Numbered from the stretch's first letter, positions 1-53,222 are shown. The stretch is DNA of 64,000 nt from an uncultured Acidobacteriota bacterium (GCA_963810305.1 CAWEMY010000011.1:72912-136911), one strand, 5' to 3'. The notes: generated from the sequence alone by a model not told the origin. Numbers and translations are program-made.

Positions 1-110
1 CCTCGCGCCGTCATAGCATCCGCGAACGAGGCGGAGCATCGCCCGATGTGGTTAGTGCTCCATCCCTCACGACATCGAACAACTTGCGTGCGAGTTCGGG
101 AGAAATAGCA

Positions 111-3100
111 ATGCTCCATCGAAGTCTGGTTTTCCTGGTGATGTTACTGATGGCTCCGGCCGGCGCATGGGCGCAGCTGACGACGGGAACCATCACCGGA
201 GTAGTCAAGGACAGCAGCGGCGGTTTCGTGCCTGGTGTCACGGTCGTCGTCCAGAACGTCGAGACGGGCGCGGCGCGCACCATCGTGACCGGCGCTGACG
301 GCCGCTACGAGGCGCCAAATCTGCCGGTTGGTAATTACGCCGTCAAGGCGGAGCTGACGGGCTTCCAGACCACCAACCGCAGCGGGATCAACCTGACGGT
401 CGGGCGAACGGCCGTCGTCGACCTGGAACTGAAGGTCGGAAACATGACCGAGGCGGTTGAGGTGAAAGGCGAAGCCGCCCTCCTGGAAACCACGTCGGCC
501 ACCGTGTCCAACCTCGTTGACGCCAAGAGGGTGGTCGAGCTGCCGTTGATCAACCGTGACCTGACGCAGTTGACGTTCCTGCAGCCCGGCGTGTTGAAAA
601 TGCCGACACCCGGCGCCGGCAACTCCGGATCCTTCAGCGGCATGGGTGACAAGCTGAGCGTCGCCGGCGCGCGCGGCAATCAGAACATCTTCATGCTCGA
701 CGGCGTCTCGAACAGCGATCTGTCAGGCAATCCGCAGGGCGCGACGGGCGGCTACGCGGGCGCGGAGACGATCCAGGAGTTCCAGATCATCACCAACAAC
801 TACTCTGCGGAATACCGGAGCCAGGCCGGCGCGATCATCAGCGCCGTGACCAAGTCAGGCACGAACCGGTTCCGTGGGTCGATGTTCGAATTCCACCGCA
901 ACGACGCCCTGGACGCCTCGAACTTCTTCGACAAGAAATTCGGCGTGGAAAAACCCCAATTCGATCGCAACCAGTTTGGCGGGTCGGTCGGCGGACCGAT
1001 CGCCCGCAACCGTACCTTCTTCTTCACCGCCTACGAAGGGCTGCGGCAGGATCAGGGGCAGACGTCCACGATCAACGTTCCCACCATGGCGGCGCGTCAG
1101 GGGATCCTGCCAACCGGCAATGTGACGGTCAATCCGATCGTGGTCCCGTATCTGAACCTGTATCCCGTGCCCGGCGACGGCAACACGGTGGTGAGGGATC
1201 TGAACAACGGTACCGTTCAGCTCGCATATGCAGCGAACGAGAAGATCGATGGCGATCTGTTTACTCTGAAGCTCGATCATCGGTTGAGCGACGGCAAGAA
1301 GGGGATGTTGAGCGGGACCTACAATTACGATGACTCGTCCCGCCAGAATTTTGGCATCCTGCGCAGTGACGCGCTCCTGAACAACAAGCATGCGCTCGCG
1401 ATCAAGCACACCAGCGTGCTGGCGGCGACGACGCTGCTCGACTCCAGCTTCAACTTCAGCGATACCCAGCCGGAAGGGGACGTACCTTTGATGCCGCCGG
1501 ACGACCCGGCGCTGGTGTTCACCCCTGGAAAACCACGCATCGGCGAGCTCATTATTTCCAGCCCGAGCATCAGCATGCTCGGTACCTCCAGGGATCGGGA
1601 CGCGTATTTCCAGCGAAGCTATTCCCTCGGTCAGAATCTGACCTTCCAGCGCGGCCGCCACTCGATGCGAGTCGGCTACGACGCGAGTTTTTACCGCTAC
1701 ATCCAGGACACCTGCTCGAACGGCTGCTTCGGAAGTTACACGTTCCGCACGCTGACAACCTTCCTTCAGAACGTGCCACGGCGGTTCGATGCCCGCCTGC
1801 CGGACGCTGTCAACGTCAAGACGCTGGACCAGGCAATGATCGGCACCTATGTCCAGGACAACTTCAGGATTTCGCCGTCGTTCACGCTGAACTTGGGACT
1901 GCGCTACGAGTACTCGAGCGTTCCGGAAGAACGCAACGGCGCGACATCCCACGTGACGGATCTGACGCTCGAGACCCCGCTGGCGCAACTCAACGAGCCT
2001 GGCGCTCTCTACAAGAATCCGATGGGGAAGGCGTTCAGTCCGCGGGTCGGGTTCGCGTGGGCGCCGGGAGACGCGAAGACCTCCATTCGGGGAGGCTTCG
2101 GCATGTATTACGAGCACCCCGGGTTCTACCACATCCGTACCGCCCTGCAGGAACAACTGCCGTTCAATCAGTTGGGACGCATCGACGACGTCGACGCGAA
2201 CCGGCTGGGGCGTCCGCTCCGCTTCCCGGATGCGTACACCACGCAGGCCGACATGCTCGCCGGCCGGGCGAGCATGCGCGGGTTCCAGTACGACCTCGAC
2301 ACCTCGTACGGCTACCGCTGGAGTCTGACCGCTCAGCGCCAGTTCGGAGCGAACTGGGTCGCGACCGCGGGCTACACGGGATCGCAGTTCATGAATCTCT
2401 GGTGGCAGGGTCTTCCCAATATCAAACAGTGGGAGGGGTACCCCGCGCAGCCGTCAGGTCCGAAGTTCTTCCCGGCAGGCGCGCCGCTGATCAACCCGGA
2501 ACTGGCAGACGCGCGAATTCAGTACTCGAACGCTGATGCCAACTATCACGGCGGATCGTTCAGCCTGCAGAAGCGGTTCAGCGCCGGCCTGCATTTCCAG
2601 GCCTCGTACACCCTGTCAAAGACGGTTGACGACGGGTCCGGGGTCACGAGCGGCGGCGATCGGTTCCCGCAGGGACAGCGCTTCATGTATGCGTGGGACC
2701 TGGAAAAGAGGCACGGGTTGTCGGCGTACGACATCCGCAACAACTTCACTTCGAATTTCACCTATCAGCTGCCATGGGGGCAGACCCTCACGGGAATCAC
2801 GGGGGCGCTCGTCAAAGGATGGCAGGTCAACGGAATCCTGACGCTGATGGACGGCTCGCCGCTCACGGTGTTCGACAGCAACACCGCGCAGGCGGACCGG
2901 ATCGGCCCGACCGAGGGGTTGACCGTGGACCTGGTCCCCGGAGGAAATCCGAACCCGGTGCTGGGCGGATCGGACCGTTATTACGATGTCACCCAGTTCG
3001 CACCGTCGAAGGTGGGTTTCTTCGGAACCCTTCCACGCAACACCTTGATCGGGCCAGGCTTCGCCAGCTTCGATACCTCGGTGTTCAAGACCTTTACGCT

Positions 3101-3281
3101 GAACCAGGGTCGAGAGCTGTCGCTGCGCTTCGAAGTGTTCAACGTGTTCAATCGGGTGAATCTCGGCACGCCTGACATGACCGCGTTCATCGACGGCGTC
3201 GTGAATCCCCAGGCCGGCGAGATTGACAGTACGCGCGGCCCCGCGCGCCAGATGCAAGTGGGCGTGCGGTTCGTTTTCTAG
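111..3281 (+). CDS. TonB-dependent outer-membrane receptor with N-terminal carboxypeptidase-regulatory-like domain
   Basis: ORF 48..3281. The internal ATG at 111 gives signal peptide MLHRSLVFLVMLLMAPAGAWAQ. TGTITGVVKDSSGGFVPGVTVVVQNVETG...GRYEAPNLPVGNY is a CarboxypepD_reg-type signature. The >1000 aa barrel ends in aromatic ...GVRFVF. Confidence 0.85.
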   Translation: MLHRSLVFLVMLLMAPAGAWAQLTTGTITGVVKDSSGGFVPGVTVVVQNVETGAARTIVTGADGRYEAPNLPVGNYAVKAELTGFQTTNRSGINLTVGRTAVVDLELKVGNMTEAVEVKGEAALLETTSATVSNLVDAKRVVELPLINRDLTQLTFLQPGVLKMPTPGAGNSGSFSGMGDKLSVAGARGNQNIFMLDGVSNSDLSGNPQGATGGYAGAETIQEFQIITNNYSAEYRSQAGAIISAVTKSGTNRFRGSMFEFHRNDALDASNFFDKKFGVEKPQFDRNQFGGSVGGPIARNRTFFFTAYEGLRQDQGQTSTINVPTMAARQGILPTGNVTVNPIVVPYLNLYPVPGDGNTVVRDLNNGTVQLAYAANEKIDGDLFTLKLDHRLSDGKKGMLSGTYNYDDSSRQNFGILRSDALLNNKHALAIKHTSVLAATTLLDSSFNFSDTQPEGDVPLMPPDDPALVFTPGKPRIGELIISSPSISMLGTSRDRDAYFQRSYSLGQNLTFQRGRHSMRVGYDASFYRYIQDTCSNGCFGSYTFRTLTTFLQNVPRRFDARLPDAVNVKTLDQAMIGTYVQDNFRISPSFTLNLGLRYEYSSVPEERNGATSHVTDLTLETPLAQLNEPGALYKNPMGKAFSPRVGFAWAPGDAKTSIRGGFGMYYEHPGFYHIRTALQEQLPFNQLGRIDDVDANRLGRPLRFPDAYTTQADMLAGRASMRGFQYDLDTSYGYRWSLTAQRQFGANWVATAGYTGSQFMNLWWQGLPNIKQWEGYPAQPSGPKFFPAGAPLINPELADARIQYSNADANYHGGSFSLQKRFSAGLHFQASYTLSKTVDDGSGVTSGGDRFPQGQRFMYAWDLEKRHGLSAYDIRNNFTSNFTYQLPWGQTLTGITGALVKGWQVNGILTLMDGSPLTVFDSNTAQADRIGPTEGLTVDLVPGGNPNPVLGGSDRYYDVTQFAPSKVGFFGTLPRNTLIGPGFASFDTSVFKTFTLNQGRELSLRFEVFNVFNRVNLGTPDMTAFIDGVVNPQAGEIDSTRGPARQMQVGVRFVF

Positions 3282-3319: not shown

Positions 3320-4663
3320 ATGTCGCCTCCCTTGTCACGTTTGCGCCGGCTCGCACCGGCCATCATCGCTGGTTCGCTGGTTTTGGCTGGCGGGTCGCCG
3401 CGATGGCTATCGGGCACCGATGCCACGAGCCAGCGCGCTGGAACGCTGGTCGCGTTCGAGCCGATGCCGAATCTCTGCGTGATGCCGGCGGCCGAGCAGC
3501 GCGCCGCGATGCGGCAGGAGTATGCGGCGATCCAGGCGGGCCGAGTGGTCAGCGGCGCGGCGACTCCGGAGCGGACGATCAAGGATCCCTATCCCTCCTT
3601 CGCCGGTGTGTCGGTTGATCCGGTTCGGAACGAAGTCGTCTTTACCGACGAGAGCCTGTTTCAGGTCCTGGTCTACGACCGCACGGCGAATACGCCTGCG
3701 GGTGTGACCCCTCCGAAGCGGGTGATCGTCGGCGAGAAGACGAATATCGAGTTTCAGTCCAGTGCCTGGGTGGACCCGAAGACCGGCGAAATCTACGCCG
3801 TGAACAACGACACTCGCGACACCACCGTCGTGTTCGGGGCCGGCGCCACCGGCAATGCGGCACCGGTGCGCAGCATCGCCACGCCGCACGGTTCCTTCGG
3901 GATCGCGGCCGCTGAAGCGCACGACGAAGTGCTGATGACGATTCAGCATGATTCGGCGATCGTCGCCTACAAGAAGAGTGCTGGAGAGGGGGATGCGCCG
4001 GTCCGAATGCTCCAGGGGCTTGCGACCAAGCTGGCCGACCCGCACGGGATCGCGTATGACCCGCAGGAGGACGTGATCTACGTCGCCAATTTCGGCGCGA
4101 CGCACGATGTCAGCGCCAAGGAGGGTGGCGGCCGGGACCGGCGCGGCCGGGGACGGACAAACTGGCCGCTCGGGCGCGACCAGGCAGTGCCGGGTTCCGG
4201 CACGATCAACAAGCCATCGATCAGCGTCCACCGCCGTCTCGCAACCGCCAACGAACCGCCGGTTCGCGTCATCGAGGGACCCGCGGCGCAACTGAACTGG
4301 CCCACTGGGCTGGCCTTCGATCCGGGCAGCCGCGAGCTGTATGTCGCGAACGACATGGGCCCGTCGATTGTGGTGTTCGACGCCGCCGCGAAGGGCGACG
4401 TCGCCCCGAAGAGGGTGCTCAAGGGATCCAGGACCGGTCTGGCGAATCCGACGGCGGTCTCACTCGATCTGAAGAACAACGAGCTGTGGGTGGCGAACTT
4501 CGGCGGTCACTCGGGCGTGGCGTTCGACCTGAAAGCCTCTGGCAACATTGCGCCCAAGAGAATTATCCGCAACGCTCCGCCGAACACGCCGTCGCTGATG
4601 ATCGGCAATCCCGGAGCGGTCGGCTACGACACGAAACGGGAGAACATCCTCGTCCCTAATTGA
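3320..4663 (+). CDS. Secreted beta-propeller repeat protein, portion upstream of an in-frame TGA (candidate selenoprotein, N-part)
   Basis: ORF 3320..4663. Hydrophobic N-terminal leader. Reiterated blade motif (..E[IL]xVAN..[IV]xVF....G[DN]xAPxRxI.G..T.L..P.G[IV]A.D). Ends ..ENILVPN-TGA. Paralog of 37774..39102. Confidence 0.8.
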   Translation: MSPPLSRLRRLAPAIIAGSLVLAGGSPRWLSGTDATSQRAGTLVAFEPMPNLCVMPAAEQRAAMRQEYAAIQAGRVVSGAATPERTIKDPYPSFAGVSVDPVRNEVVFTDESLFQVLVYDRTANTPAGVTPPKRVIVGEKTNIEFQSSAWVDPKTGEIYAVNNDTRDTTVVFGAGATGNAAPVRSIATPHGSFGIAAAEAHDEVLMTIQHDSAIVAYKKSAGEGDAPVRMLQGLATKLADPHGIAYDPQEDVIYVANFGATHDVSAKEGGGRDRRGRGRTNWPLGRDQAVPGSGTINKPSISVHRRLATANEPPVRVIEGPAAQLNWPTGLAFDPGSRELYVANDMGPSIVVFDAAAKGDVAPKRVLKGSRTGLANPTAVSLDLKNNELWVANFGGHSGVAFDLKASGNIAPKRIIRNAPPNTPSLMIGNPGAVGYDTKRENILVPN

Positions 4664-5488
4664 GTCGCTCATCCGCAGATTGCGGTGTTCGCCAGGCTGG
4701 CGGACGGAGGGGCGCAGAGACTGAGGGCAATTGAAGGACAGGCGACGTTGCTTGGCCGGACGATGCACGCGATTGCGTATGACGCGATTCACGACGAGAT
4801 CGTCGTGCCGCAGCAGTTCGGCCAGGCGATTTTGACCTATGCGGGAGACGCGGCCGGGGAGGCCCCCCCCAAGCGGGTGATCATCGGGTCGAAGACGCAA
4901 CTTAGCCGGCCGGACAGGGTGGGGATCGATGCCGTGAACAACGAGATCCTGGTGCCGGAAGACGACAAGGTGCTGGTGTTCCCTCGTGAGGGGCAGGGCA
5001 ACGTCGCGCCGATCCGCATCGTCGGAGGGGCCGAAGCAGGCGTGATGGGGACCGAGGCGGTGGTCGTTGATGCGAAACGCGATCTCATGATCGTCGCGGG
5101 CAACTATCGGCAGGGGGAACGAGCCTCGAATTCACTGATGATCTTCGATCGCACCGCCTCGGGGAACACCAAACCGAAGCGTGTTATTACCGGGATCCCG
5201 GACAACCGTAACATCGCGATCGAGCCGGAAGGAGGATGGATTTTCGTGGCGCTGCCGGGCACTATCGCGCATCCCTACGGACATGTCGGCGTCTGGCACA
5301 TCGACGACAACGGCGAGGTGCCTCCCAAGTTCCGTATCGGCGGCCCGAATGGGTCGCTGCGCATGCCGCGGGGAGTGGTGCTCGACCCGAAGAACCAGTC
5401 GGTGATCGTGTCTGACAAGAAGCTGAACGCCATTCTTACGTTCAGAATTCCGGAGATCTTTACGGCGACGGCCGCGCAACGGCGATGA
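4664..5488 (+). CDS. Continuation of the same beta-propeller protein downstream of the in-frame TGA (the ORF track starts it at GTG 4685)
   Basis: Same reading frame as 3320..4663, with 7 sense codons (VAHPQIA) between the TGA and GTG 4685. The blade motif QIAVFARLADGGAQRLRAIEGQATLL..HAIAYD..DEIVV begins before the GTG. No Shine-Dalgarno ahead of 4685. Paralog of 36850..37752. Confidence 0.7.
   Translation, partial: VAHPQIAVFARLADGGAQRLRAIEGQATLLGRTMHAIAYDAIHDEIVVPQQFGQAILTYAGDAAGEAPPKRVIIGSKTQLSRPDRVGIDAVNNEILVPEDDKVLVFPREGQGNVAPIRIVGGAEAGVMGTEAVVVDAKRDLMIVAGNYRQGERASNSLMIFDRTASGNTKPKRVITGIPDNRNIAIEPEGGWIFVALPGTIAHPYGHVGVWHIDDNGEVPPKFRIGGPNGSLRMPRGVVLDPKNQSVIVSDKKLNAILTFRIPEIFTATAAQRR
4673..4705 (+). 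promoter_or_regulatory. Putative SECIS-like tandem hairpins after TGA 4661-4663
   Basis: Hairpin 1: CCGCA-GAU-UGCGG (4673-4685). Hairpin 2: GUUCGCC-AGGCU-GGCGGAC (4687-4705), a 7 bp stem including one G-U pair. The loop resembles AGGUU of the CUAEP radical SAM hairpin in this window. Covaries with the paralog at 37732-37764. Confidence 0.55.
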
Positions 5489-5553
5489 ACCCGGCGGGCG
5501 AACACAGCAGAGGCTTGGTGGAGCCGCACATGGCGGAAGAGGACGAGAGACAT

Positions 5554-7430
5554 ATGCATAAGAAAATCCTGAGTTGGATCACTATCGCGGCGTTTAGTTT
5601 CAGCAGTCTCGGCACGACCGCGTTTGCGCAGCAGGTGCCGCCGGAGCTGATCACGTATCCGGAGCTCATCGTGCACAACGCGAACGTCCTGACCTTGGAC
5701 GCCAAGGACACCGTTGCCCAGGCCGTCGCTATTCGCGATGGAAAATTCCTGGCAGTCGGCACCAATGCCGCGATCATGCGACTCGCGGGCCCGAAAACGC
5801 AGAAGATCGACGCGAAGGGGCAGACGGTGATGCCGGGCATCGTCAACACGCACATCCATCCGAATCGTTCGGTGATGAGCCAGTACTTCGAGCAGTTCCC
5901 GCCGGAAGTGCAGACCATGCTTCGAGCGAGCGGCCGACTCACGAAGCCGCGCGACAAGGCGGATGCGCTGGCGCAGATCGCCAACGCCGCTCGGGCCGAG
6001 AAGGGTGCGTGGGTCAAGATCGGCGGGCAACGAACCGATCTGGTCCTGCACGAGCTCCGCATTGCGGATCTCGACGCAGGCCGTTCCCGATAAGCCGCTC
6101 CTCATCACGCTCTCCGGCTGGTGGGGCATCATCAACAGCAAGGCGCTCGCCGAGCTGAAGAAGCGCTACCCGGAACCGACCGGCCTGGTGACGATGGCCC
6201 CGGATGATGCCGCCGTCCCCAAGCACGCTGCCAAAACCGCCCGCCAGGGCAAGTCGAGCGACGAGGGCAAGTTCACGGGTCACATCATGGGGACTCCCGT
6301 TCTGGCTCGTGCGCGAAGAGTTGATCCCGAAACCGACGGCGGAATTCCTCGCGCCTTACTTTGCGAAGTTCCTGAAGGAACAGCTCGTCCCGGCCGGCAT
6401 GACGACGATGTCGTCGCGATTCTCGGCGCTCGAGATCCGCGCCTATCGCCTGGCGGAAAAAGACGGCAAGCTGCCGATGCGGATTGCCTTCGGCCACGAA
6501 GTGGGCCGCTGGAATCCGATTTTCGAGCGCGACATGCAGCGGGTCATGACCGACGTCATGAACTACGGGACCGACATGATGTGGCTCAGTTCGATCTCCA
6601 TCGGCATCCCGGACTCCAATCCGCTGCAGGGCGCCGGGGCGATCTGCTCGACGTTCCCGAAGCTGCAGCTCCGGGAGGGTGAAGGGTTCCCCGATGGCGT
6701 CTGCCTGTGGGACATCGAGGGAGATCCCACCAAAGAGACCATCAAAACGATCAATCGCCTCGGCTATCGTGTGGGCAACACACACACCTACGGCGATCTT
6801 GGCCTGCAGATGGCCATCGACACTCTGGAAGAGGCGAAGAAGGAACGGCCGCTCCAGCCGCTGACGGCGCTCGATCACAGCCAGTTGTTCAATCCCAACG
6901 TCATCAAGCGATCCGGCGAACTGGGGATGATCTGGAGTCTGAACCCCGGCATGTTCGCGGGCGCGCGCAGCGGCGCGATCGAAGGGACCTACGGCAAGGA
7001 GGTTGCGAACCGGATGCTGTCGCCGGTCAAGAGCCTGCTGGATGCCGGCGCGCTGGTCTCCTATGAAGGAGAAGAAGGGACTGAGAACCCGTTCAATTCA
7101 CTCGAGACGCTGGTCCGCCGTCAGACGGCGCGCGGCCACGTCCTCGGTGAGCGTGAGAAGGTCGACCGCCGGACCGCGCTGCGCATCATGACCGAGAACG
7201 GCGCCAAGTACGTCCTCAAGGAAAAGGAAATCGGCTCGATCGAAGTCGGCAAGTGGGGCGACTTGATCGTCATCGACCGGAACCCGCTCGATCCGAAAGC
7301 GGTTCCCGACGACCAGCTCGCCGACATGATCGTGATGTATACGGTCGTCGGCGGCAAAGTGATGTTCGACCACACGAGGGATCCGCGGCCGAAGCTGAGC
7401 AAGTCGGTCGGGTCCGATAACGAAAGATAG
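5554..7430 (+). pseudogene. Amidohydrolase-3 family metal-dependent hydrolase, secreted, interrupted by two frame changes (pseudogene or assembly indels)
   Basis: Signal peptide MHKKILSWITIAAFSFSSLGTTAFAQQ and HxH motif NTHIHP in the frame of 5485..6093. The middle piece AVPDKPLLITLSGWWGIINSKAL is in the frame of 5963..6682. The C-terminal GKWGDLIVIDRNPL..VVGGKVMFD is in 6204..7430. Shifts lie near 6079-6080 (GG) and 6289-6292 (G4 run). Confidence 0.7.
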
Positions 7431-9287: not shown

Positions 9288-10256
9288 TCAGGTGACGTCG
9301 ACGAAGTACGGCACGGCGCGCAAGGCGAATACCATGCAGAGCAGGACGACCGCCGGGACCGCGAAATAGTGGAACACCGGCCGGTTGCGGATATACCGCG
9401 TCTGCACGAGCGACCCTTTCTCCAGCGAATCGATTGACGAGGATGCTGCCTGCAGCTGCGCTGCGGACGTGGCATCGTAATAACGCCCGCCGTACCCCCT
9501 GACGGCATTGGCGAGCTGCACGACGGCAGGACGAGTCTTGGCGACTTCCGTCAGGTCGATGCCGACCATGTGCACGCGCGTCCCCGCTTCATTCGCCTTT
9601 GCCAGGGTCACGAGCGGGTCCTCACCGAAGTTGTGTTCGCCGTCGGTAAAAACCACCATGACCTGGCGACCGGATCCGCGTTCGAGCTTCATGCGCGCGA
9701 GCAGCGCGCTGCCGGTCGATATGCCGTCGCCGATCGCCGTCAGTCCCTCTTCTGCAAGCGTCTTGTCGTCGATCATTCCGACGTAGTCGCGGAGATATTG
9801 ATGATCGAACGTCAGCGGGCTGACCACGTAGGGGTAGTCCGAGAAGACGATCAACCCGATGCGGTCGTCGGGCCGTCGCCCGATGAAGTCGATCAGCGCT
9901 TTCTTCGTCGTTTCCAGGCGGGTGGCGGCGCCGGCCCGGCCGCCCATCAGCTCCTGCATGCTCGATGACAGATCGAGCACGATGGCGATGTCCACGCCTC
10001 GCGAAGTCACCTGGCGTTCAGAATAGGGGACGACCGGCTCGCACAGCGCCAGCGCGATCAACGGTAACACCGCGGCCGCGGCGATCGTCGGCGCCTGCCG
10101 CAGGCGGGAGGCCCGGTACCGATGAGCGTTGAGCAATGAAGTCAGGGGAAAACTGACGAACCGTGGCCGCCGCAACATCCGCCACACGACGATCAACGCC
10201 AGCGCCGCGGGGATGGCCCAGAGATACGCCGGGTGCTGCAGGACGAACGTCTTCAT
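9288..10256 (-). CDS. VWA domain-containing membrane protein (BatA-like)
   Basis: N-terminal TM helices, then the MIDAS-type motif DIAIVLDLSSSM. Last gene of the MoxR/DUF58 operon. Confidence 0.8.
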   Translation of the reverse strand: MKTFVLQHPAYLWAIPAALALIVVWRMLRRPRFVSFPLTSLLNAHRYRASRLRQAPTIAAAAVLPLIALALCEPVVPYSERQVTSRGVDIAIVLDLSSSMQELMGGRAGAATRLETTKKALIDFIGRRPDDRIGLIVFSDYPYVVSPLTFDHQYLRDYVGMIDDKTLAEEGLTAIGDGISTGSALLARMKLERGSGRQVMVVFTDGEHNFGEDPLVTLAKANEAGTRVHMVGIDLTEVAKTRPAVVQLANAVRGYGGRYYDATSAAQLQAASSSIDSLEKGSLVQTRYIRNRPVFHYFAVPAVVLLCMVFALRAVPYFVDVT

Positions 10257-11240
10257 CGCGCATCAGCGCCCAGGGAGTTTTCCGCCTCGAGCAACACCGT
10301 CTGCCAGTCATCCGCCGAAGGATTCTCGGGCGCATATTTCGCCCGTTCGCATTGCTGCAGGACGTGCTGAACGTGCTCCAGCTTCATCGGACGGCGTTTG
10401 TGGGTCGCGACGGCGCCGATCTCCGCCGGCGTCAGCGCCAGCGCAGGGACGCCGGTGGCCTGCTGCAGGTTGGTCCGCACCCAGGTATCGAGTTGCGCGT
10501 ACGCTCCGCGCAGCGAGTCCGGTGAGCTGACGTCCAGGGCCTTGATTTCCCGCAACGCCGCGAGCCGCTGTCGCCGCGACTGGCGTCTGGGCCCGCCGGC
10601 CGTCCGGCGCCGGGCGCGAAGCACCAGGTTGGCCACCCACAGAACGACCGGCACGACCGACAGCGCGACGAGACCGAATCCGACGGGCCGCGCCCATTGG
10701 ACCCATCGCGGGAGCGGATACACGCTGCGATCGTCCCGCAGTGCCGCGGTCACACCCTCAGGGATGGTGCTGCGCAATGAGAGTGCGAGCGGTGGCACTT
10801 TCACTTCGCCGGCCGGGACGACGTCTTCCGCTTTTTTTCCGGCTTGCTGCATGAAGTAGCGCACGGGAATCGCGCCAATCCCCAATGACGCCGCGTCGGG
10901 TTCGTAGGCGACCACCCGGTAGCGCATCCGGTGGATCACCCGGTCGGGGACGGACGCGTCTCGCTCGACTTCTGCGCCCAGCAGCTCGAGGCCCGTCAGT
11001 GGCAGCCGTTCCGCCGCCAGGTCGTCCGCCAGGATGTCCACCTTCGGCGCACAGGTCAGTTCGACGGTGTAGGTGATCGGGTCGCCGACCCACACGGCGG
11101 TTCGGGTCACAGTGGTACTGATCTGAACCGGCGCCGGCGGCGCCGCGGCAGCGCCGCTCGGAGGCTTCGCCGTACTTCTGCGCGCCCACCGTGGCGGTGA
11201 GCATGCACAACAGCGGGTATACCAGCCTTCTCACCTTCAT
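10253..11240 (-). CDS. BatD/DUF4381-like membrane protein, leader one frame off
   Basis: ORF 10253..11110 (TAVWVGDPITYTVELTC.., central TM helix, C-terminal LTPAEI.. segment). Signal peptide MKVRRLVYPLLCMLTATVGAQ starts at ATG 11240 in another frame. The main frame is open upstream to 11238 but has no start codon there. Confidence 0.55.
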
Positions 11241-12118
11241 CCTAGTCTCCTTCGGGCGAACAGATTGAGCAGCGGTTCCATCACCACTTCATCGGTTCGG
11301 ACGAACAGGTAATCGATTGGAATCCGATAGCAGGCGTCGACGATGGTTCGGCGACGCTCCGCCACGGCTTCCGTGTATGCCTCCCGGGTCGCCGAACTGA
11401 GGCCGACCCGCAGGCTGCGGCCGTTTTCGGGATCCCGCATCCGCACCGCGCCATGGCCACGTGGCAGCGCGACCTCGGCGGGATCTTCCGGAACGATTGC
11501 GATCACATCGTGCCGCGAGGCGAGCATCCGGAGCTCGGCGCTGCCGAAGACGTCCTCCTCGGTGATGAAGTCCGACACCAGACACACGACGCTCATGGTC
11601 CGCAGACTCCTCACGAGATGCCCGATCGCGGGAACGACCGCCGTGTGCGTCCCGGTCTCCTTGATCGACCACAGCTCCTCGAGCAGCTGCCACCCGCGGG
11701 CGCCGGCGCGCCGGGGAGCCGACCAGTGGAGAAGCCGGTCCGAAAAGGCGAGAAATCCAAGATTGATTTGATCGCTCGATGCCGAGAAGAGGATCGAAGC
11801 GGCGATGAAAGTCATCGCCTCCTTCTTCGAGTACCTGGTCGATCCGAACGTCATCGACGGCGACATGTCCAGCGCCACCACCACGTTCAACTCGCGCTCG
11901 GCGTGGGTCTGGCGCAGGTAGGGCGCGTTGAGCCTGGCGGTGACGTTCCAGTCGATCCGCCGAACGTCGTCCCGCTCGCGATACGGCCGGTGCTCGTCGA
12001 AATCGAAGCCGGTGCCGCGCAGCGGACTGGTGTACGGACCGATCCGCAGGTTGCGAATCTTCTTTGCGGTGTACACCTCGAGGTACCGCAGCTCGCGCAT
12101 GACGTCGGGAGGGATCAT
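11237..12118 (-). CDS. DUF58 domain-containing protein
   Basis: GTGFDFDEHRPYRERDDVRRIDWNVTARLNAPYLRQ is the DUF58 core. Immediately downstream of the MoxR ATPase. Confidence 0.85.
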   Translation of the reverse strand: MIPPDVMRELRYLEVYTAKKIRNLRIGPYTSPLRGTGFDFDEHRPYRERDDVRRIDWNVTARLNAPYLRQTHAERELNVVVALDMSPSMTFGSTRYSKKEAMTFIAASILFSASSDQINLGFLAFSDRLLHWSAPRRAGARGWQLLEELWSIKETGTHTAVVPAIGHLVRSLRTMSVVCLVSDFITEEDVFGSAELRMLASRHDVIAIVPEDPAEVALPRGHGAVRMRDPENGRSLRVGLSSATREAYTEAVAERRRTIVDACYRIPIDYLFVRTDEVVMEPLLNLFARRRLG

Positions 12119-12130
12119 CGGGGCACCGCG

Positions 12131-13165
12131 TTACGGGATCGGCACCGCCGAGAGCACTTCGCGCAGGAGGGCATCGGGGGGGACGTTCTCCGTCTGAGCC
12201 CTGATGCTGCGCACGATGCGGTGCCGGTTGGCGTCGTAATAGATTTCCTTGACGTCCTGCGGCAGGACGTAGGCGCGGCCGTGGAAGAACGCCGTCACGC
12301 GGACGAGGGCCAGGATGTGCTGGTACGACCGGGGCGAAACGCCGAGGAGAAGCAGCTCCTTCAGGTTCGGCAGGCCGACATCACCCGGATCGCGCGTCGC
12401 GCGTCCGATCCGCACGATGTATTCCCTGACGCGGTCGCTGATGTGGACATGAGCCCGGATCAGGTCGCGCATCTGCGCGACGTCCGAGGGGGAGACCTGG
12501 CGTTCGAGTTCCAGCCGCTGGAAGTTCGCCTGCAGCATGTGCAGCTCGTGCTCGGCTGCGGGATAGTCGACCGACAGCATCATCGAGAAGCGATCGAGCT
12601 GCGCCTCGGGCAGCGGGTAGACCCCCTCGTGTTCGACCGGGTTCTGCGTCGCCAGCACCCAGAATGGATCGTCGAGGCGGAAGGTCGTGTCCGCGAGCGT
12701 GACCTGACGCTCCTGCATCGCTTCGAGCAGACCGCTCTGCGTTTTCGGGGTAGCGCGGTTGATCTCGTCGGCGAGCAGGATGTTGGTGAAGATCGGACCT
12801 TTCTCGATTCTGAATCGCGCCGTGGAGGCGTCGTAGATGCGCGTGCCGACGATGTCGGCGGGCAGCATGTCGGGGGTCAGCTGGATACGCTGGAAGCGCG
12901 CCGAAATGGCGTGCGCCAGTGTCGTGATGGTCAGGGTCTTGGCGACACCGGGAACCCCTTCCAGAAGGACGTGTCCGCACCCGGAGCGGGTTTCGCTGCG
13001 AGTGGCGGCATACGGGATGGCCGCAAACAGGCCCGTCAACAGCCGACGAATCAAGATCGGCTGGCCGACGATGACACGCGCAGTCTCTCGCTCGAGAACC
13101 TGGAGTGTCTCAAAAGCCTCTTCGGGAGTAATCGCTGGTCTGTCGGCGGTCTCGGTCAGGTTCAT
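12131..13165 (-). CDS. MoxR-family AAA+ ATPase
   Basis: Walker A GHVLLEGVPGVAKT, Walker B ILLADEINRA and the VLATQNP motif. Confidence 0.9.
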   Translation of the reverse strand: MNLTETADRPAITPEEAFETLQVLERETARVIVGQPILIRRLLTGLFAAIPYAATRSETRSGCGHVLLEGVPGVAKTLTITTLAHAISARFQRIQLTPDMLPADIVGTRIYDASTARFRIEKGPIFTNILLADEINRATPKTQSGLLEAMQERQVTLADTTFRLDDPFWVLATQNPVEHEGVYPLPEAQLDRFSMMLSVDYPAAEHELHMLQANFQRLELERQVSPSDVAQMRDLIRAHVHISDRVREYIVRIGRATRDPGDVGLPNLKELLLLGVSPRSYQHILALVRVTAFFHGRAYVLPQDVKEIYYDANRHRIVRSIRAQTENVPPDALLREVLSAVPIP

Positions 13166-14157
13166 AGTAGGGCTACCAACGCCGCGGCGGCGATCCCGGC
13201 GGCCGCGAGCAGATACACATATACGTCGCGATACTCCGTGGTCGTGCGCCAGCCGGTCTGAACCCGATTGGCGTTGGCGATCTCCTCGAACGCGGCGCGC
13301 AGTTCGCTGCCTGTCGCCGAGCGGATGTATTGGCCGCCGGTGGCGGCGGCAACCGCCCGGAGTGACGATTCGTTGAATCGCGTCGTCATCGTCCGGCCCC
13401 CCTCGTCCTTGAGCAGGGATTCGCGTTCGCCGGGGAAAGTCACCGGGATCACCGACTGCTGTGCCGAGCCGATGCCGATGGTGTGGACGCGCAGGCGCTT
13501 GGTTCTCACTGCCGTGAGGGCCTGGTCGAGCGTACTGCCCTGATCTTCACCGTCCGAGATGATGAGCAGCAGTTTACGGGTCGTCTGCTTGTCCTTGCGT
13601 ACTACTTCCAGCGCACTTGTGAGCGCGGCGCCGATATCCGTGCCGTAGAGGACGGCTGGGTCATCACGGATCCAGTCGAGATAAAAGAGAATGCTGTCGA
13701 CGTCGCTGGTGAGATACGACAGCACGAGCGGCGTGCCGGCGAAACCGACCAGTCCGACGCGATCGATGGCTTCGGGCTTCCGCCGGAGGAAGTTCTCGAT
13801 TTCCGTGAGCGCACGCTCGGCACGCGACGGGCGAACGTCACGCGCCTGCATCGACACGGAGCGGTCGAGAATGAGAATCAGATCCTGACGCTCGAACTCC
13901 GCCGTGCGGCGCTCGAGCAGGACCTGCGGCCGCATCAACGTCAGCGCGAGAAGAGCCGCCGCTGATGAGGCGAGGACCAGGACGACGGCATCGCGGCGCC
14001 ACGTGCTGCGGCGGGAGAGCCCGCGGAATCGAGGCTGCACCTTCGTCCGCTGGCGAGCGTTCCAGCGGTAAAGAAAATGCGCCAGCCAGAGGGCAACCAC
14101 CACCGGGACGGCCGCCAGCCACTCCGCCATTTCCGGCTGCTCGAACTGCACCATCAT
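13162..14157 (-). CDS. VWA domain-containing membrane protein (BatB-like)
   Basis: TM helices then DLILILDRSVSM MIDAS motif. 4-nt overlaps with both neighbouring genes. Confidence 0.8.
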   Translation of the reverse strand: MMVQFEQPEMAEWLAAVPVVVALWLAHFLYRWNARQRTKVQPRFRGLSRRSTWRRDAVVLVLASSAAALLALTLMRPQVLLERRTAEFERQDLILILDRSVSMQARDVRPSRAERALTEIENFLRRKPEAIDRVGLVGFAGTPLVLSYLTSDVDSILFYLDWIRDDPAVLYGTDIGAALTSALEVVRKDKQTTRKLLLIISDGEDQGSTLDQALTAVRTKRLRVHTIGIGSAQQSVIPVTFPGERESLLKDEGGRTMTTRFNESSLRAVAAATGGQYIRSATGSELRAAFEEIANANRVQTGWRTTTEYRDVYVYLLAAAGIAAAALVALL

Positions 14158-14772: not shown

Positions 14773-17700
14773 TCAGCCGAGCGACTCCGGCGTCGGCCGA
14801 CGCAGTAATTTGGTCCATCGCGCCGCCACCGCGCCGATCCTCGCCCCCTGCAGCCGCGTCCGTGCGTCCTCGACCAGCGAGTAGGCGACCGGCACCAGCA
14901 GCAGGGTGAGAAACAGACAGAGCGTTTGACCACCGATGATGGTCACGGCGATGTCGCCGCGCTGCCGCGCCCCGGCACCGGCGCCGAAGGCGGTCGGGAT
15001 CAATCCCGCGATAATCGCGGTGGTGGTCATCAGGATAGGCCGCAGCCGCGTGCGCGAGGCCTCCAGCAGCGCGGCATCGAGCGGCATGCCGCGCTTCCGC
15101 AGCACGTTGGTGTAGTCGACCTGCAGGATCGAGTTCTTCTTCACGATCCCCAGCAGGAGAAGAATGCCGAGCGTGCTCCACAGGTTGAGCGCGCGCCCCG
15201 TCATCGCCAGCGTCAGCAGCGCAAACGGGACCGACAGCGGCAGCGCGGTCATGATGATGAGCGGCTGCACGAAGCTCTCGAACTGCGCCACCAGGACCAT
15301 GTAGACGAAGATACTGGCAAGAGCGATCGCCAGCATCATGTTGGCGGCGGTCTCGTCCAGGACCTGCGCCTGCCCGGCAAATCGACTCCGGTAATCAGCC
15401 GGCAGCTCGAGCGCGCGAACTTCGGTCTGGACCTTCGGCAGCGTCGCGTCGAGCGCATTCCCTGGGCGGAGATCAGCCGACACACCCACCGAAAACTGGC
15501 GATCGAGGCGCGTAATCGAGGTCGGCCCCTCACCGCGCTCGAGCCTGGCGACGTTGTCGATGCGAACCAGTGCTCCGCTGTGTGAGGCGACCATCAGTCC
15601 GCCGACCGCGCTGACGTCGTTGCGCTGATCCTCACGGACGCGCATCTTGACGGGGTAGCGTTCACCGCCCTCGCGGTAACTGGTGATCTCATCTTCGCCG
15701 CTCACCATCAGGCGCAGAGAGCCGGCCAGCTCGGCCACCCGGACACCAAGGTCGGCAGCTCGCTGTCGGTCCACGGCGACGCGAATTTCCGGGTTGCCGA
15801 GATTGACCCGGGCCTTGATGTCGATCAGCTCCGGCAGCGCGTGCAGCCGCTCGTTCAGTTGGACGGCATAGCCGCTGAGCCTGACCAGATCGGGCCCGTA
15901 GAGATTGACCAGCACCGGCCAGTTCGTGCTCTCACCACCGCCGATGGCGGATCTGAACAGCACGGTCGGGCGGTAGGTCTGATACGCGGACATGGCCTCG
16001 CGCGCGACCATCGCGATCTCTTCCTGGCTCTGCGAACGCTCCTCGATCGGCTGCAGCTTCACGATGACATGCGAGTGGTTGACCCGCTCCAGGATCGTCG
16101 GCATGACATTGGCGACGCCAGGGACGTCCTTGAGCTTGGCGCCCATCTCCAGGACGAGCTTTTCCATTCCGGCAAGCGACGTCCCCTCCGGAGCATCGAG
16201 GGTGATCTCGAATTCCCCCTGATCTTCGTTCGGCAGGAACGAGCGGCCCACCAGTTGCGCGAGCGGAACGGTGGCGGCGAAGGTCAGGATGCTGATCGCC
16301 ACGACAGCGGCGCGATGGTCGAGCGCCCATCGCAGGCTCCGGGTGTAGCCCCGCTCGATCCATCGATAGATCCGCTGCCCGTTTTCCGTGTGCCGTCCCG
16401 CGGCCGGCCGGAGCATTCGGGCGGCGAGCATCGGTGTCAGGGTGAGGCTCACGAGCAGCGAAACCATGATCGCGAACGCCATGGTCATGCCGAACGGATA
16501 AATGAACCGCTGGGCGTAACCGGTCATGAACGCAACCGGCATGAAGATCACCACGAGCGAGAGTGACGTTGCCGCCACCGCGAGCAGAACTTCGCCGGTG
16601 CCCTCGACCGCGGCGCGGAATGGCGGGAGCCCTTCCTGCTCGATCTTCCGGAAGATATTCTCGAGCACCACAATTGCGTCGTCGATGACGATCCCGACGG
16701 CGAGCGTGAGACCGAGCAGCGTCATGGTGTTCAGCGTGAAATCCATGACCCGCATGAGCGTGAACGTCGCGATCAACGACGCGGGGATGGCCAGCGCGCT
16801 GATGATCATGGCTGGCACATTGCGGATGAATGCCAGGACGACGAGGCTCGCCAGCAGGCTGCCGAGTATCAAATGCTCTTCCAGCGAGGCAATCGATGCG
16901 TAGATGAATGACGATTCGTCGCGGGTGTAGACCAGCTTCAGGTCCGGGGGTAACCCCGCCCGGATCCCGTTCAACGCCTGCTTGATCTCCTTGATGACCG
17001 CGATGGTGTTCTGGCCCGATTGCCGTCGGACGTCGATAACCACCGCTCGTTCGCCATCGAGAAACGCCGCCGACCGGGCTTCTTCCTGCGTATCGCTGAC
17101 TTCGGCGACGTCCGATACGCGGATCGGCGTCCCGCCTTGAGTGGCGACCACGATCCTGCCGAACTCCTCGACGCGCTCGAGACGTCCCGGCGTTCGCAGC
17201 ATCACTTCGGCGTCGCCCTGATCGATACGTCCGCCGGGGATTTCGACGTTCTCGGCTGCGAGCGCCGCGCGGACCTGGCCGGCGCTCAACCCGTGGGCGG
17301 AGAGCTTCTCGATATCGAGCGTGACGTGGATCTCGCGAGCCCGGCCGCCCGCAACCGTCACTTCGCCGACACCGTTGACCGCTTCGAGGGCGCGGCGGAT
17401 GCTCTTGTCGGAGATCTCCGAGAGCGTGCGCAGATCGTACGGCCCGCCGACCGCGATCGTGAAGATCGGTTGTGATTCGGGATCTGTTTTCGCGATGACC
17501 GGGGGATGAACCTGAGGTGGCAGGTTGCCGAGCGCTCCGGCGACCTTTTCCCGAACATCCTGCGCCGCTTCGTTGATGTCCCGCTCGAGGACGAACCGGA
17601 TGGTGATCCGTGCCGAGCCAACGGTCAGCCGCGACTGGATCTGATCGATGCCAGCGATACCGCTCAGCGCCTGCTCCAGCGGCTCGGCCACCGCGGAGCT

Positions 17701-17878
17701 CATTTCGTCCGGGCTCGCACCCGGCAGCGCCACCGCCACGGTGACTGTCGCCGGGTCCGCCTTCGGCAGCAGGTCGACGCTGAGATCGCGGAAGGAGAAC
17801 AGGCCCGTCACGACCAGTGACATCACCAGCACGGTCGTGAATGCCGGACGGCGTACACGAAAAATCGGCCAGACTCAT
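14773..17878 (-). CDS. RND efflux transporter permease (AcrB/CusA superfamily)
   Basis: ORF 14773..17832 with 12-TM RND architecture. The conserved N-terminus RVRRPAFTTVLVMSLVV continues upstream without a start codon. ATG 17878 (MSLADF) is one frame off across an A5 run at 17860-17864. Confidence 0.85.
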
Positions 17879-19104
17879 CGGCCGGCTTCCCCTGGATCGC
17901 GTTTGCCGGAGGCGGCTCGTGGCGCAACGGTCTGCCCTGCGGTCAAGCCCTCGACACCGTCAGCCACGATGACGGTGCCGGCGGTGATGCCCTCGAGGAT
18001 TTCCACGCGCTGGCCGAGGCGGTCCCCTAATTTCACTTCGGCCGCCGCCAGTGTCCCGTCACGGACGACGAACACGACGGTACGGCCGTAACGGGTCTGC
18101 AGTGCGGTGACCGGCACGGCGACGGTCTTGTCGACCTGGTCGGTCACGAGCCGGACGCGCGCAAACGTGCCTGGCTTCAGGGCGCCGTCAAGATTGGGGA
18201 CCGCGGCCTCAATGGCGAATGCCCGCGATCGCTGATCGACGTCCGGGCTGATGCGAGTGACACGCCCCTCGACCGGACGATCGGGGTAGGCATCGACGCG
18301 GACGCCGATGGTTTGACCGACGCGAATGGCCGGCGCGAACCGCTCGGGGATCTGCGCCGTCAGCCGCAGCGGATGCAGACGGACGATACGCATCACCGGC
18401 GTCTGGACGCGGACGAACTGGCCGGCCGAGACGAGCCGTTCGGCGACCACCCCCTCGAAGGGTGCGCGGATGACGGTGTCCTGAAGCTCCCGGCTGGCGC
18501 CCTTGAGCGCCGCGCTGCGGGCGCTGACTTCTGCCAGGAGGTTCCGGGCGGAGGCGAGCGCGGCATCGTAGGCCGCTTTGGCCGTCTGGAGCTGGGTTTC
18601 GGCGCGTTCCAGGTCCTGGGCCGGCAGGAGGTTTCTGGCGGCGAGTTGCCGAGACCGTGCCACCGCTTGTTCTGCTTCCGTGCGGCGGGCGATCGCGCTG
18701 ATCACCTCCGGCGTCTGCTCTGGCGCCGGCAGTTCTTCTCCGCGTGCGCCAAGCCGGGCTCGCGTCTGGTTCAGGGCCGCACGCTGCTCGTCGGCTCGGT
18801 ATTGCAGTTTTTCAGCGTCCAGAATGACCAGCGGGGCGCCTTTGGCGACGCGATCGCCCATGTCCGCCGCCAGCCGCGCCACGCGCGCTTCGACCTCCGC
18901 GCTGACGATCGCCTCGTCGTGAGCCGCCAGGGTTCCCACCGCCTCGACGTCGCGCCGGACTTCCACCAGACTCACCTGAAGCACGTTGACCGGCAGCGCG
19001 GCGGCGCCGTTCTCGGTCCGGCCCTTTGCCGCGCCGCCGCAGCCACCGACCGCGAGGATCGCGGTCAGAGTCAGCCACCGGCATGAAGTGGACCAGTCCG
19101 TCAC
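17875..19104 (-). CDS. RND efflux periplasmic adaptor (membrane fusion protein, HlyD family)
   Basis: Lipoprotein-like leader ..LAVGGCGG, a coiled-coil hairpin region and beta-barrel domains. 4-nt overlap with the RND permease. Confidence 0.85.
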   Translation of the reverse strand: MTDWSTSCRWLTLTAILAVGGCGGAAKGRTENGAAALPVNVLQVSLVEVRRDVEAVGTLAAHDEAIVSAEVEARVARLAADMGDRVAKGAPLVILDAEKLQYRADEQRAALNQTRARLGARGEELPAPEQTPEVISAIARRTEAEQAVARSRQLAARNLLPAQDLERAETQLQTAKAAYDAALASARNLLAEVSARSAALKGASRELQDTVIRAPFEGVVAERLVSAGQFVRVQTPVMRIVRLHPLRLTAQIPERFAPAIRVGQTIGVRVDAYPDRPVEGRVTRISPDVDQRSRAFAIEAAVPNLDGALKPGTFARVRLVTDQVDKTVAVPVTALQTRYGRTVVFVVRDGTLAAAEVKLGDRLGQRVEILEGITAGTVIVADGVEGLTAGQTVAPRAASGKRDPGEAGR

Positions 19105-30238: not shown

Positions 30239-30628
30239 ATGTCACGAACAGTGATCCAGCCCGACTCGCTGAAAGACCCGCGTCCCCGGTACTCCCAGGG
30301 CATCGTGACTGATGGCGGCCGGTTGCTGTTCATCGCTGGTCAGACCGCCGCCGACCGCGACGGCAACGTCGTCGGAAAAAACGACCCCGAAAAGCAGGCG
30401 GAGCAGGTGTTCGCGAATCTGGGCGCCGTTCTGGCAGCGGCGGGGGGGACGTTCGACAATCTGGTGAGTACCACCACGTACCTCACCGACATCAAGTACC
30501 GCGAGGCTTACAACAAGGTGCGTCTCGAGTACTACGCCAACAGCCAGCCGACCAGCACCCTCGTCGTCGTCAAGGCGCTCGGGGGAGAAGATTTCCTGAT
30601 CGAAATCGACGCGATCGCCGTTATTTGA
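30239..30628 (+). CDS. ridA: RidA/YjgF family reactive-intermediate deaminase
   Basis: 129 aa. ..LFIAGQTA.D..GNVVG.., ..TTTYLTDI.., ..PTSTLVVVKAL...FLIEIDAIAV typical of YjgF/RidA. Confidence 0.8.
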   Translation: MSRTVIQPDSLKDPRPRYSQGIVTDGGRLLFIAGQTAADRDGNVVGKNDPEKQAEQVFANLGAVLAAAGGTFDNLVSTTTYLTDIKYREAYNKVRLEYYANSQPTSTLVVVKALGGEDFLIEIDAIAVI

Positions 30629-34328: not shown

Positions 34329-34338
34329 CGAATCTCCA

Positions 34339-51620: not shown

Positions 51621-53159
<1,539 letters not shown>

Positions 53160-53222
53160 GGAGGGAAGAATACCCGAAGTGCGCAGGGCGCAGGGCGCGG
53201 TGCGCGGTGCCGGCGTGTCAGA

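Follow-up and report, generated by a model that had tools for sequence, protein, structure and literature searches.

A tandem NHL-type beta-propeller of Acidobacteriota whose in-frame TGA is very probably read as selenocysteine

The window analysed here is a stretch of 64,000 nucleotides (nt) from an uncultured Acidobacteriota bacterium (GCA_963810305.1 CAWEMY010000011.1:72912-136911), in which a gene for a beta-propeller protein (locus 1) lies at 3320..5488 on the plus strand. An earlier note, made from the sequence alone, had pointed to this gene as a candidate selenoprotein gene split by a TGA into two open reading frames (ORFs). Computational analysis makes it very probable that the TGA at 4661-4663 is read as selenocysteine (Sec), joining the two ORFs into one double beta-propeller of 722 residues that is probably exported. 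This reading is carried by homologues with cysteine (Cys) at the aligned position, by the conservation of the TGA itself, by a predicted selenocysteine insertion sequence (SECIS) behind it, and by a further, curated selenoprotein gene in the same window.

A conserved in-frame TGA and the RNA hairpins behind it

ORF 1 (3320..4663, plus strand) starts with ATG and encodes 447 amino acids (aa), and ORF 2 (4685..5488, plus strand) starts with GTG and encodes 267 aa. The two share a frame, as the earlier note had it, with only TGA 4661-4663 and 7 sense codons between them. Translation of 3320..5488 revealed 723 codons including the final stop (TGA 5486-5488), with the TGA at 4661-4663 as the single internal stop, and through-translation gives a tandem NHL-type beta-propeller of 722 residues with Sec at position 448. 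The blade repeat does run across the TGA, as had been claimed: the context is ..GAVGYDTKRENILVPN*VAHPQIAVFARLADGGAQRLRAIEG.., the residues ENILVPN directly precede the TGA, and the pattern '..ELWVAN FGGHS GVAFD....APKRIIR' continues uninterrupted past it. The G+C content at third codon positions (GC3) of the frame is 0.81 upstream of the TGA and 0.78 downstream. ATG 3320 has the sequence GCGAGGT located 7 nt upstream; ahead of GTG 4685, which sits within the RNA hairpins described below, inspection found no purine-rich Shine-Dalgarno run, in agreement with the earlier note. In comparison with the 97% identical gene of a related locus (L118), substitutions fall on codon positions 3, 1 and 2 in the numbers 25, 5 and 1 after the TGA and 13, 2 and 2 before it, and the sole indel is one in-frame 3-nt indel. 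The two ORFs of locus 1 belong to a single gene.

The fused locus 1 sequence, used as the query against 5.8 billion proteins, retrieved two classes of relatives. Full-length relatives of ~725-750 aa, 45-72% identical with 88-99% of the query covered, all have Cys opposite the TGA in the motif ILVPN-C-VAHPQIA, which forms an invariant column in 43 proteins. The closer relatives of ~450 aa, 61-99% identical over the first 62% of the query only, all have their C-terminus exactly at ..ILVPN. These ~450-aa database entries are TGA-truncated gene calls, and their DNA continues in frame. The homologues are not independent genes ending at this position, an outcome that would have spoken against the earlier note; each of the full-length ones is one ORF, with a Cys at the place of the TGA. 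A HMMER search with the N-terminal ORF returned 463 clusters (50% identity) at E <= 1e-30, and among the matches listed ~39 clusters align through residue 447, ~27 of them stopping exactly there and ~12 going on. The closest full-length homologue, P0001 (locus L119), is a Cys form, 72% identical, and a syntenic orthologue; full-length Cys homologues span 93-99% of the locus 1 product.

A genomic scan was made with one genome per species, and the best 80 of 248 matches were analysed. The aligned codon is TGA in 76 of these loci and TGC in 4, and the frame behind the TGA stays open for a median of 272 codons (72 complete TGA loci). With second copies from the same loci, the expanded set comprised 91 Sec and 43 Cys sequences, non-identical to one another; for codon comparison, the DNA of the Cys forms was taken from a metagenome pattern scan, and TGC or TGT was found at the aligned codon in 43 DNA sequences. 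An in-frame UGA within a conserved ORF with coding sequence downstream, Cys homologues aligned to this UGA, and UGA homologues in other organisms (76/80 loci; 91 distinct sequences) were thus all found. Both the Sec/Cys homology at the TGA and the conservation of the TGA across relatives are observed, and the recurrence of the same TGA in so many related loci and non-identical sequences places it far beyond chance.

Two hairpins follow the TGA, and their presence had been noted before. Hairpin 1 (4673..4685, plus strand; CCGCA-GAU-UGCGG), an accessory stem, begins 9 nt after the TGA. Hairpin 2 (4686..4706, plus strand; UGUUCGCC-AGGCU-GGCGGACG), of which the previously proposed 4687-4705 is the core, has an 8-bp stem and a 5-nt loop (4694-4698) and is the predicted bacterial SECIS. 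The recoding mechanism is the standard bacterial one, in which a SECIS hairpin brings SelB-GTP-Sec-tRNASec to the ribosome, and the SECIS is of the canonical type. The mRNA would fold 30 nt after the UGA into the SECIS hairpin at 4686-4706 (8-bp stem, AGGCU loop), preceded by the small accessory hairpin; the SECIS hairpin would recruit SelB-GTP-Sec-tRNASec to the ribosome, and UGA 4661-4663 would be decoded as Sec. According to the published model for bacterial SECIS elements, the loop has 3-9 nt and begins with G followed by G/U, the stem has 4-16 bp, the distance from UGA to loop is 16-37 nt, and the minimum free energy (MFE) is <= -7.5 kcal/mol (PMC13188914). When the region after the TGA was checked against this model, as the earlier note had proposed, hairpin 2 agreed with it on every count (loop 5 nt, stem 8 bp, UGA-loop distance 30 nt, MFE -11.8 kcal/mol), and hairpin 1 fell outside the rules both in its UGA distance, which at 13 nt is too near, and in its loop.

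A gap-free alignment of 87 nt around the TGA from 78 TGA sequences (A4) revealed how far this structure is conserved. Columns 38-45 pair with columns 51-58 to form the 8 bp of hairpin 2 around a 5-nt AGGYU loop. The outer pair 39-57, which couples two third codon positions, one in a Val/Ala codon and the other in an Asp/Glu/Asn codon, is GC in 28 sequences, AU in 19, UA in 13 and CG in 4, and is unpaired in 14. Its covariation score is 0.129, compared with 0.054 +/- 0.005 after shuffling (0/500 shuffles as high) and <= 0.077 with slid partners. Synonymous sites are fixed in the TGA forms (GCC 75/78, AGG 73/78, GCG 76/78), the codons being mixed in Cys forms; the rare AGG encodes the loop Arg in 73/78 Sec forms versus 11/37 Cys forms. 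The RNA structure is specific to TGA forms: all 91 Sec forms have a G[G/U] loop, against 20/43 Cys forms, and the intact 7-bp stem together with this loop is found in 71/91 versus 11/43. Pairs of hairpin 1 are formed in 84-99% of the 91 Sec forms, and hairpin 1 is fully paired in 63/91 Sec forms versus 11/43 Cys forms.

The same arrangement recurs elsewhere in the window. A paralogous predicted selenoprotein gene (locus 2; 36850..39102, minus strand) encodes 750 residues, 38% identical to locus 1, and carries its Sec codon, TGA 37774..37776 (minus strand), at the same aligned position in the context ..ALIVPN*VSVPRVSVFARLANG... Its hairpin 1 (37764-37752, minus strand; CCGAGA-GUC-UCUCGG) and hairpin 2 (37751-37731, minus strand; UGUUUGCC-AGGUU-GGCAAACG) stand in the same register and at the same 30-nt spacing as those of locus 1, with compensatory stem changes from CG to UA. 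Furthermore, a gene for a CUAEP/CCAEP-tail radical S-adenosylmethionine (SAM) protein (53693..54652, plus strand), which the earlier note had taken as a sign of Sec decoding, was confirmed by a 459-bit match to NCBIfam NF040546, which spans positions 147-467 of the 468 in the profile. Its ORF 53693..54616 ends in ..PWYC-TGA (54614-54616), followed by AEPNAEQVALL-stop, and a hairpin, AGAGC-AGGUU-GCUCU at 54631-54645, lies 19 nt after this TGA. To judge from its TGA and hairpin, the CUAEP gene is independent evidence that the source genome decodes UGA as Sec. Among the AGGYU-loop hairpins on both strands of the window, seven have a stem of >= 4 bp and three a stem of >= 5 bp, and these three are the ones 30, 30 and 19 nt after the TGAs of locus 1, locus 2 and the CUAEP gene. 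An AGGYU apical loop common to the propeller family and the CUAEP gene is expected if one SelB reads both. A fourth AGGUU hairpin (GAUC-AGGUU-GAUC, 57530-57567, minus strand), 18 nt after a TGA, has a stem of 4 bp only and is probably due to chance, its 147-codon frame being antisense to a high-GC3 OmpA-like gene (57494..58792). As a separate observation, the CUAEP ORF matches NF040546 from profile position 147 only, the N-terminal ~146 residues being absent from the frame, and the gap to a divergent POT-family transporter gene (51621..53411, minus strand) is only ~280 nt; the 5' region (53412-54652) may reflect a frameshift or a truncated gene.

The predicted product and its candidate functional site

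The N-terminal segment of the locus 1 product (3320..3400, plus strand; MSPPLSRLRRLAPAIIAGSLVLAGG..; residues 1 to ~27) is signal-like, with a basic n-region followed by ~15 hydrophobic residues, and in structural models it is helical or disordered with a predicted local distance difference test score (pLDDT) below 50. This hydrophobic segment points to export of the product to the periplasm or the outer surface. A twin-arginine (Tat) signal at LRRLAP was considered and is unlikely because close homologues do not conserve the RR pair. Twelve repeats of the form 'G[IV]a.D ... e[IL]yVaN ... i.vF ... aP.R.i.G' are readable in the product. Pfam profiles for NHL (three stretches, 45.1 bits with the cut-off at 20), SGL (35.6 bits), Lactonase (32 bits) and Arylesterase all match above their cut-offs, each for one to three blades only; the NHL repeat (PF01436) is accordingly present above its gathering score.

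AlphaFold2 models were made for the Cys orthologue P0001 (72% identical to locus 1; pLDDT 87.9, predicted template modelling score (pTM) 0.85) and, separately, for residues 1-447. The best superpositions of the 1-447 model were with six-bladed NHL domains, namely TRIM2 (template modelling (TM) score 0.79, root-mean-square deviation 3.4 A), Brat (0.71) and PknD (0.70), and its scores against seven-bladed targets were <= 0.6 (E. coli YncE 0.57). The N-terminal ORF is thus six-bladed in a model, not in a solved structure. Because it superposes best on six-bladed NHL domains, a 6+6 layout of the blades is probable, which would put Sec into blade 7, the first of the second propeller, and a 7+5 topology suggested by strand order was set aside. 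The strand ..PERTIKD (residues ~83-89) near the N-terminus has a strand-D motif and is ordered in the full-length model (pLDDT 95) and unstructured in the truncated one (pLDDT ~59). As it is ordered only in the full-length model, and as blade 12 itself lacks a strand D, this N-terminal strand would close the second propeller beside blade 7. Foldseek with the full-length model returned generic double propellers only (WD40 pairs, LRP6, megalin; TM ~0.3), and a profile search of PDB sequences gave weak NHL-repeat matches only (TRIM3, Brat, NHLRC2, SOQ1). NHLRC2 and SOQ1 have a thioredoxin-like domain joined to an NHL propeller.

In the P0001 model, strands 462-466 (..VLVPN) and 474-478 (QIAVF) are joined by a turn that contains the Cys. 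This places Sec448 of locus 1, by prediction, in the strand B-C loop of blade 7. Ligand and active sites of propellers are usually found on the face of the B-C loops. Sec448 directly follows the conserved Asn at the end of strand B of blade 7, and the equivalent spot in blades 2 and 5 is taken by an invariant Asp (NND and AND; N163-D164 and N344-D345), suggesting that Sec448 is part of a functional site and may be the reactive centre of an enzyme. Its context, VPN-U-VAHP, lies outside any CxxU-type motif, as stated in the earlier note. The only other Cys of the mature protein, Cys53 (codon TGC, 3476..3478, plus strand), is a candidate partner of Sec448. C53 is invariant in three family alignments (A1, A2, A5) and lies ~30 residues before the N-terminal strand; the family has two conserved Cys columns only, and of 44 Cys-form (or Cys-substituted) sequences, 31 contain both of these Cys and no further one past residue 35. 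A redox-active C53-U448 selenylsulfide pair is the preferred reading of the site, although a tentative one whose chance is put at somewhat below even, and a role of Sec448 as a metal or substrate ligand ranks after it. A CxxH metal motif (U-V-A-H) was rejected as a family-wide ligand, since the His is replaced by Val in the window paralogue.

Alternative readings of the TGA

Several findings weigh against the proposed decoding, or against the role assigned to the residue. Pfam scans of 30 predicted genes in the 64-kb window revealed no selA, selB or selD, and ARAGORN found neither tRNA-Sec nor any other tRNA gene in it; tRNA-Sec was not found by ARAGORN in 60 related loci either. Because the sel genes are not in the window, Sec decoding in the source genome rests on the CUAEP gene. 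Neither a SECIS nor a credible family was retrieved from Rfam, in which bacterial SECIS elements are poorly represented, for the whole window at the gathering threshold or for 4630-4770 at E <= 10. About one quarter of the Cys forms retain hairpin 2; these are more likely recent Sec-to-Cys conversions, although the hairpin could have another role. The region of C53 has a pLDDT of only ~55-65, the sequence around Sec is without a known redox motif, and the N-terminal ORF is modelled as a complete folded domain by itself, so that a product of termination at the TGA may be made as well. On the side of the proposed decoding, the deep-Sep table lists Acidobacteriota that use Sec.

The alternative that survives best, although it is unlikely, concerns such a product: inefficient or selenium-dependent Sec insertion would yield both the 722-aa selenoprotein and a functional 447-aa single propeller. 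It fits the modelled folding of the N-terminal ORF into a closed six-bladed propeller without the C-terminal half, as well as the established competition between Sec insertion and release factor 2 in bacterial selenoproteins. However, no truncated, Cys-free natural form without the downstream half was seen, 72/72 complete TGA loci keep the downstream frame, and only the full-length model gives the velcro-like N-terminal strand and C53 a structural role.

Very improbable is the notion that the hairpins merely reflect conserved amino acids (HPQIAVFARLADG) and have no function as RNA. The peptide is indeed conserved in Cys forms too, and some of these keep the hairpin, but the synonymous sites are frozen only in TGA forms and two third-codon positions covary through GC, AU, UA and CG. 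Moreover, both stems persist in the second paralogue clade although the peptide there is PRIS/PRVS instead of PQIA, with compensation in pairs 28-34 (CG to AU) and 29-33 (AU to GC) of hairpin 1, and the Cys forms of this clade lose the stems and the peptide together (FARLANG to FARYASG). Since the stems of this clade are compensated, and are lost in its Cys forms, the conservation of the peptide after Sec seems partly imposed by the RNA structure.

It is hardly credible that the TGA is a genuine stop, ending a 447-aa six-bladed propeller ahead of a separately initiated or re-initiated C-terminal propeller. Gene callers do annotate two parts (P0002 and similar entries; the gene table of L118), the model of the N-terminal ORF by itself shows a complete NHL propeller, and the codon 3' of the TGA (4664-4666 in the window) is GTG, a possible restart codon, in 69/78 TGA forms versus 18/37 Cys forms. 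The preference for GTG may have to do with codon context during Sec insertion or may just mirror phylogeny, and both copies in the window have GTC, which is no start codon, directly 3' of the TGA. GTG 4685, for its part, is without a Shine-Dalgarno sequence and inside the hairpins. In addition, the TGA falls between strands B and C of blade 7, which a stop would split, and conserved sequence crosses it, the Cys homologues are covalently continuous, and a genuine stop would give no role to the covarying RNA structure specific to TGA forms.

Read-through without Sec, either by near-cognate insertion of Trp, Cys or Arg or through a reassigned code, is scarcely conceivable. It would likewise yield the fused protein, and nothing specific speaks for it. 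TGA is the ordinary stop of ~32 other predicted genes in the window, which indicates that the genetic code is not reassigned; the aligned residue of the homologues is always Cys, and the hairpin, which agrees with the SelB-type SECIS model, is shared with the curated selenoprotein gene in the window. Finally, a nonsense mutation (pseudogene) or an assembly error is effectively refuted by the comparative data: the adjoining amidohydrolase gene does have single-base indels relative to a close relative, and the assembly is thus not error-free, but the TGA is shared by both window paralogues and by 91 non-identical sequences drawn from numerous metagenome-assembled genomes (MAGs), purifying selection persists downstream of it, and the propeller gene itself shows no indels against L118 save the in-frame one.

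Known families, distribution and gene neighbourhood

The propeller selenoprotein family appears to be undescribed. For both window paralogues, NCBIfam (June 2026) gave only sub-threshold matches, including 6-phosphogluconolactonase NF008258 (18 bits against a cut-off of 370) and the YncE equivalog NF052280 (15.7 bits against 400), scores that do not support membership in either family. PF08450 and PF10282 cover ~90 residues, or two blades, which likewise does not make the protein an SMP-30/gluconolactonase/lactonase. The words propeller, NHL, lactonase and YncE do not occur in a 2026 review with a family table (PMC13188914), in BSepDB (111 families), in deep-Sep or in a 2022 review. Full-text literature searches, whose coverage did not extend to Haft and Tolstoy 2025 or to the BSepDB supplementary family table, revealed no matching selenoprotein family. 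The statement of the earlier note that no family with this fold was described therefore holds within NCBIfam and the selenoproteome papers of 2022-2026 that were searched, and it is rather unlikely that the family has already been described somewhere. Relatives are annotated at their sources as 'DNA-binding beta-propeller fold protein YncE', as 'beta-propeller fold lactonase family protein' or not at all. A relation to the selenium-binding protein/methanethiol oxidase (SBP56), an idea that arose from a literature match, was dropped in view of the lack of a Pfam match.

Classical bacterial selenoprotein genes, with E. coli fdhF as the paradigm, are similar to locus 1 in having an in-frame UGA followed by an intragenic stem-loop with a small G-G/U loop, a UGA-loop distance of 16-37 nt, and Cys homologues. 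In contrast, classical selenoproteins are thioredoxin-like or molybdopterin enzymes, and the locus 1 family, a tandem NHL beta-propeller, differs from them in having no CxxU/UxxC-type motif and in carrying a second conserved hairpin between UGA and SECIS. Sec forms are also more numerous than Cys forms among its close relatives, whereas Cys homologues are normally far more abundant than Sec forms (PMC13188914). The Cys-containing 'lactonase/YncE' proteins of Acidobacteriota (P0001, P0023, P0095), whose names are automatic, belong to the same family (45-72% identical over 88-99%), with the same 12-blade layout and invariant C53 and, for the closest, a syntenic neighbourhood; they differ in having Cys at 448 and in having mostly lost the SECIS hairpin. 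Six-bladed NHL domains such as those of TRIM2/TRIM3, Brat and the M. tuberculosis PknD sensor resemble the modelled fold of the N-terminal domain of locus 1, although the identity is only 12-18%. Known NHL domains are single propellers without Sec that bind RNA, protein or ligand, whereas locus 1 has two fused propellers with conserved polar or Sec residues in strand B-C loops; the invariant ones make up a ring (N162/N163/D164, Q209/H210/D211, N344/D345, N393/H397, N447/U448). The CUAEP/CCAEP-tail radical SAM gene (NF040546) is found in the same genome with the same AGGUU loop closed by C-G, and is presumably served by the same SelB; its product, however, is an unrelated cytoplasmic radical SAM enzyme with Sec 12 residues from the C-terminus and a spacing of 19 versus 30 nt.

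Most genomic loci of the family belong to MAGs of Acidobacteriota (Vicinamibacterales, Terriglobia, Bryobacteraceae/Solibacteraceae), and a few to MAGs of Binatia, Verrucomicrobiia and Gemmatimonadaceae. Several genomes carry multiple loci, at least 11 in MAG JADFGZ01, at least 7 in CBDCTS01, at least 4 in CAYWWM01, and at least 3 in OZ240237, a 3.76-Mb chromosome record. Adjacent tandem second propeller copies (VAHPQIA type and VSVPRIS type) occur in 15/80 related loci, and in L002, L003 and L073 both tandem copies have TGA; the two paralogue types of the window are 32 kb apart on opposite strands. In a neighbour-joining tree, which is unrooted and without support values, Cys forms occupy at least 4 separate positions within Sec clades. 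One Cys clade with TGC/TGT (L089, L090, L093, L095, L105, L107, L108, L110, L115, L117) retains the AGG codon and an AGGUU hairpin that is intact; this hairpin looks like a 'fossil' SECIS after recent Sec-to-Cys replacement. The nesting of Cys forms inside Sec clades, one of them with the fossil hairpin, suggests that Sec is old in the propeller family and was replaced by Cys several times, a direction described as rare in bacteria (PMC13188914).

A gene for a TonB-dependent-receptor-like outer-membrane protein (48..3281, plus strand; CarboxypepD_reg and outer-membrane beta-barrel, PF25183 at 542 bits) ends 39 nt upstream of locus 1, and an Amidohydro_3 gene of periplasmic type (5485..7430, plus strand; assigned with Pfam) begins on the stop codon of the propeller gene. 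Receptor homologues were found in 29/117 related loci, a de novo neighbour cluster covering 17/80 loci. Amidohydrolase homologues are a recurrent neighbour in 17 loci and are adjacent in L118 and in the Cys locus L119, where the neighbourhood of P0001 comprises the propeller, Amidohydro_3 and a VWA/DUF58/MoxR cluster. From this context, a role of the propeller linked to the flanking receptor and amidohydrolase genes can be proposed, and an envelope role in nutrient acquisition is suggested, though the context is not uniform.

The Amidohydro_3 gene of the window is broken over three frames (5485..6093, about 5876..6680 and 6204..7430), with single-base indels relative to L118 at 5487, 5881, 6076 and 6295, and is continuous in L119 and L001; the break reflects either indel errors of the assembly or a decaying gene. 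A MoxR-type AAA_3/DUF58/VWA cluster (9288..14157, minus strand) has a syntenic counterpart at L118 and L119, which hold the closest Sec and Cys orthologues, and beside the cluster of the window lies a resistance-nodulation-division (RND) efflux pump (minus strand; ACR_tran 14773..17832, HlyD 17875..19104). Locus 2 adjoins a gene for a GntR/FCD regulator (35967..36761, minus strand), homologues of which lie near family members in at least 5 other loci, and is close to a protocatechuate/beta-ketoadipate-type cluster on the minus strand (CoA-transferase 35112..35948, dioxygenase 33633..34361, Lyase_1 31785..33338, hydrolase-CMD fusion 30621..31769). In 7/80 loci, a small gene with two CxxCH haem-binding motifs lies near the propeller gene, always on the opposite strand (for example, 3399-3866, minus strand, in L057); its product could be a redox partner or its position a coincidence.

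The wider significance of the finding can be stated with evenly balanced confidence: an undescribed family in which Sec is ancestral and dominant, an exported tandem NHL propeller with a single Cys-Sec pair, reaching at least 11 copies in a single genome of soil Acidobacteriota, may carry out a selenium-dependent chemistry that is new, takes place outside the cytoplasm and is connected with TonB-dependent uptake and amidohydrolase genes. The family is unusual among selenoproteins in its propeller fold, its lack of a CxxU motif, its probable extracytoplasmic site and its excess of Sec over Cys forms. It also offers a clean natural case of one sequence stretch constrained both as peptide (VFARLADG) and as RNA (SECIS). 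Hundreds of ~450-aa 'YncE/lactonase' entries and orphan ~250-aa fragments are very probably halves of one selenoprotein, and corrected annotation would add many selenoprotein genes per genome (at least 11 and at least 7 loci in two MAGs; 2 in the window). For comparison, the cultured Acidobacteriota Occallatibacter riparius has three known selenoprotein genes (deep-Sep table). If the reading is true, the Acidobacteriota, a phylum abundant in soil, would be much heavier selenium users than current selenoproteome censuses show, a matter of relevance to both selenium biology and Acidobacteriota research.

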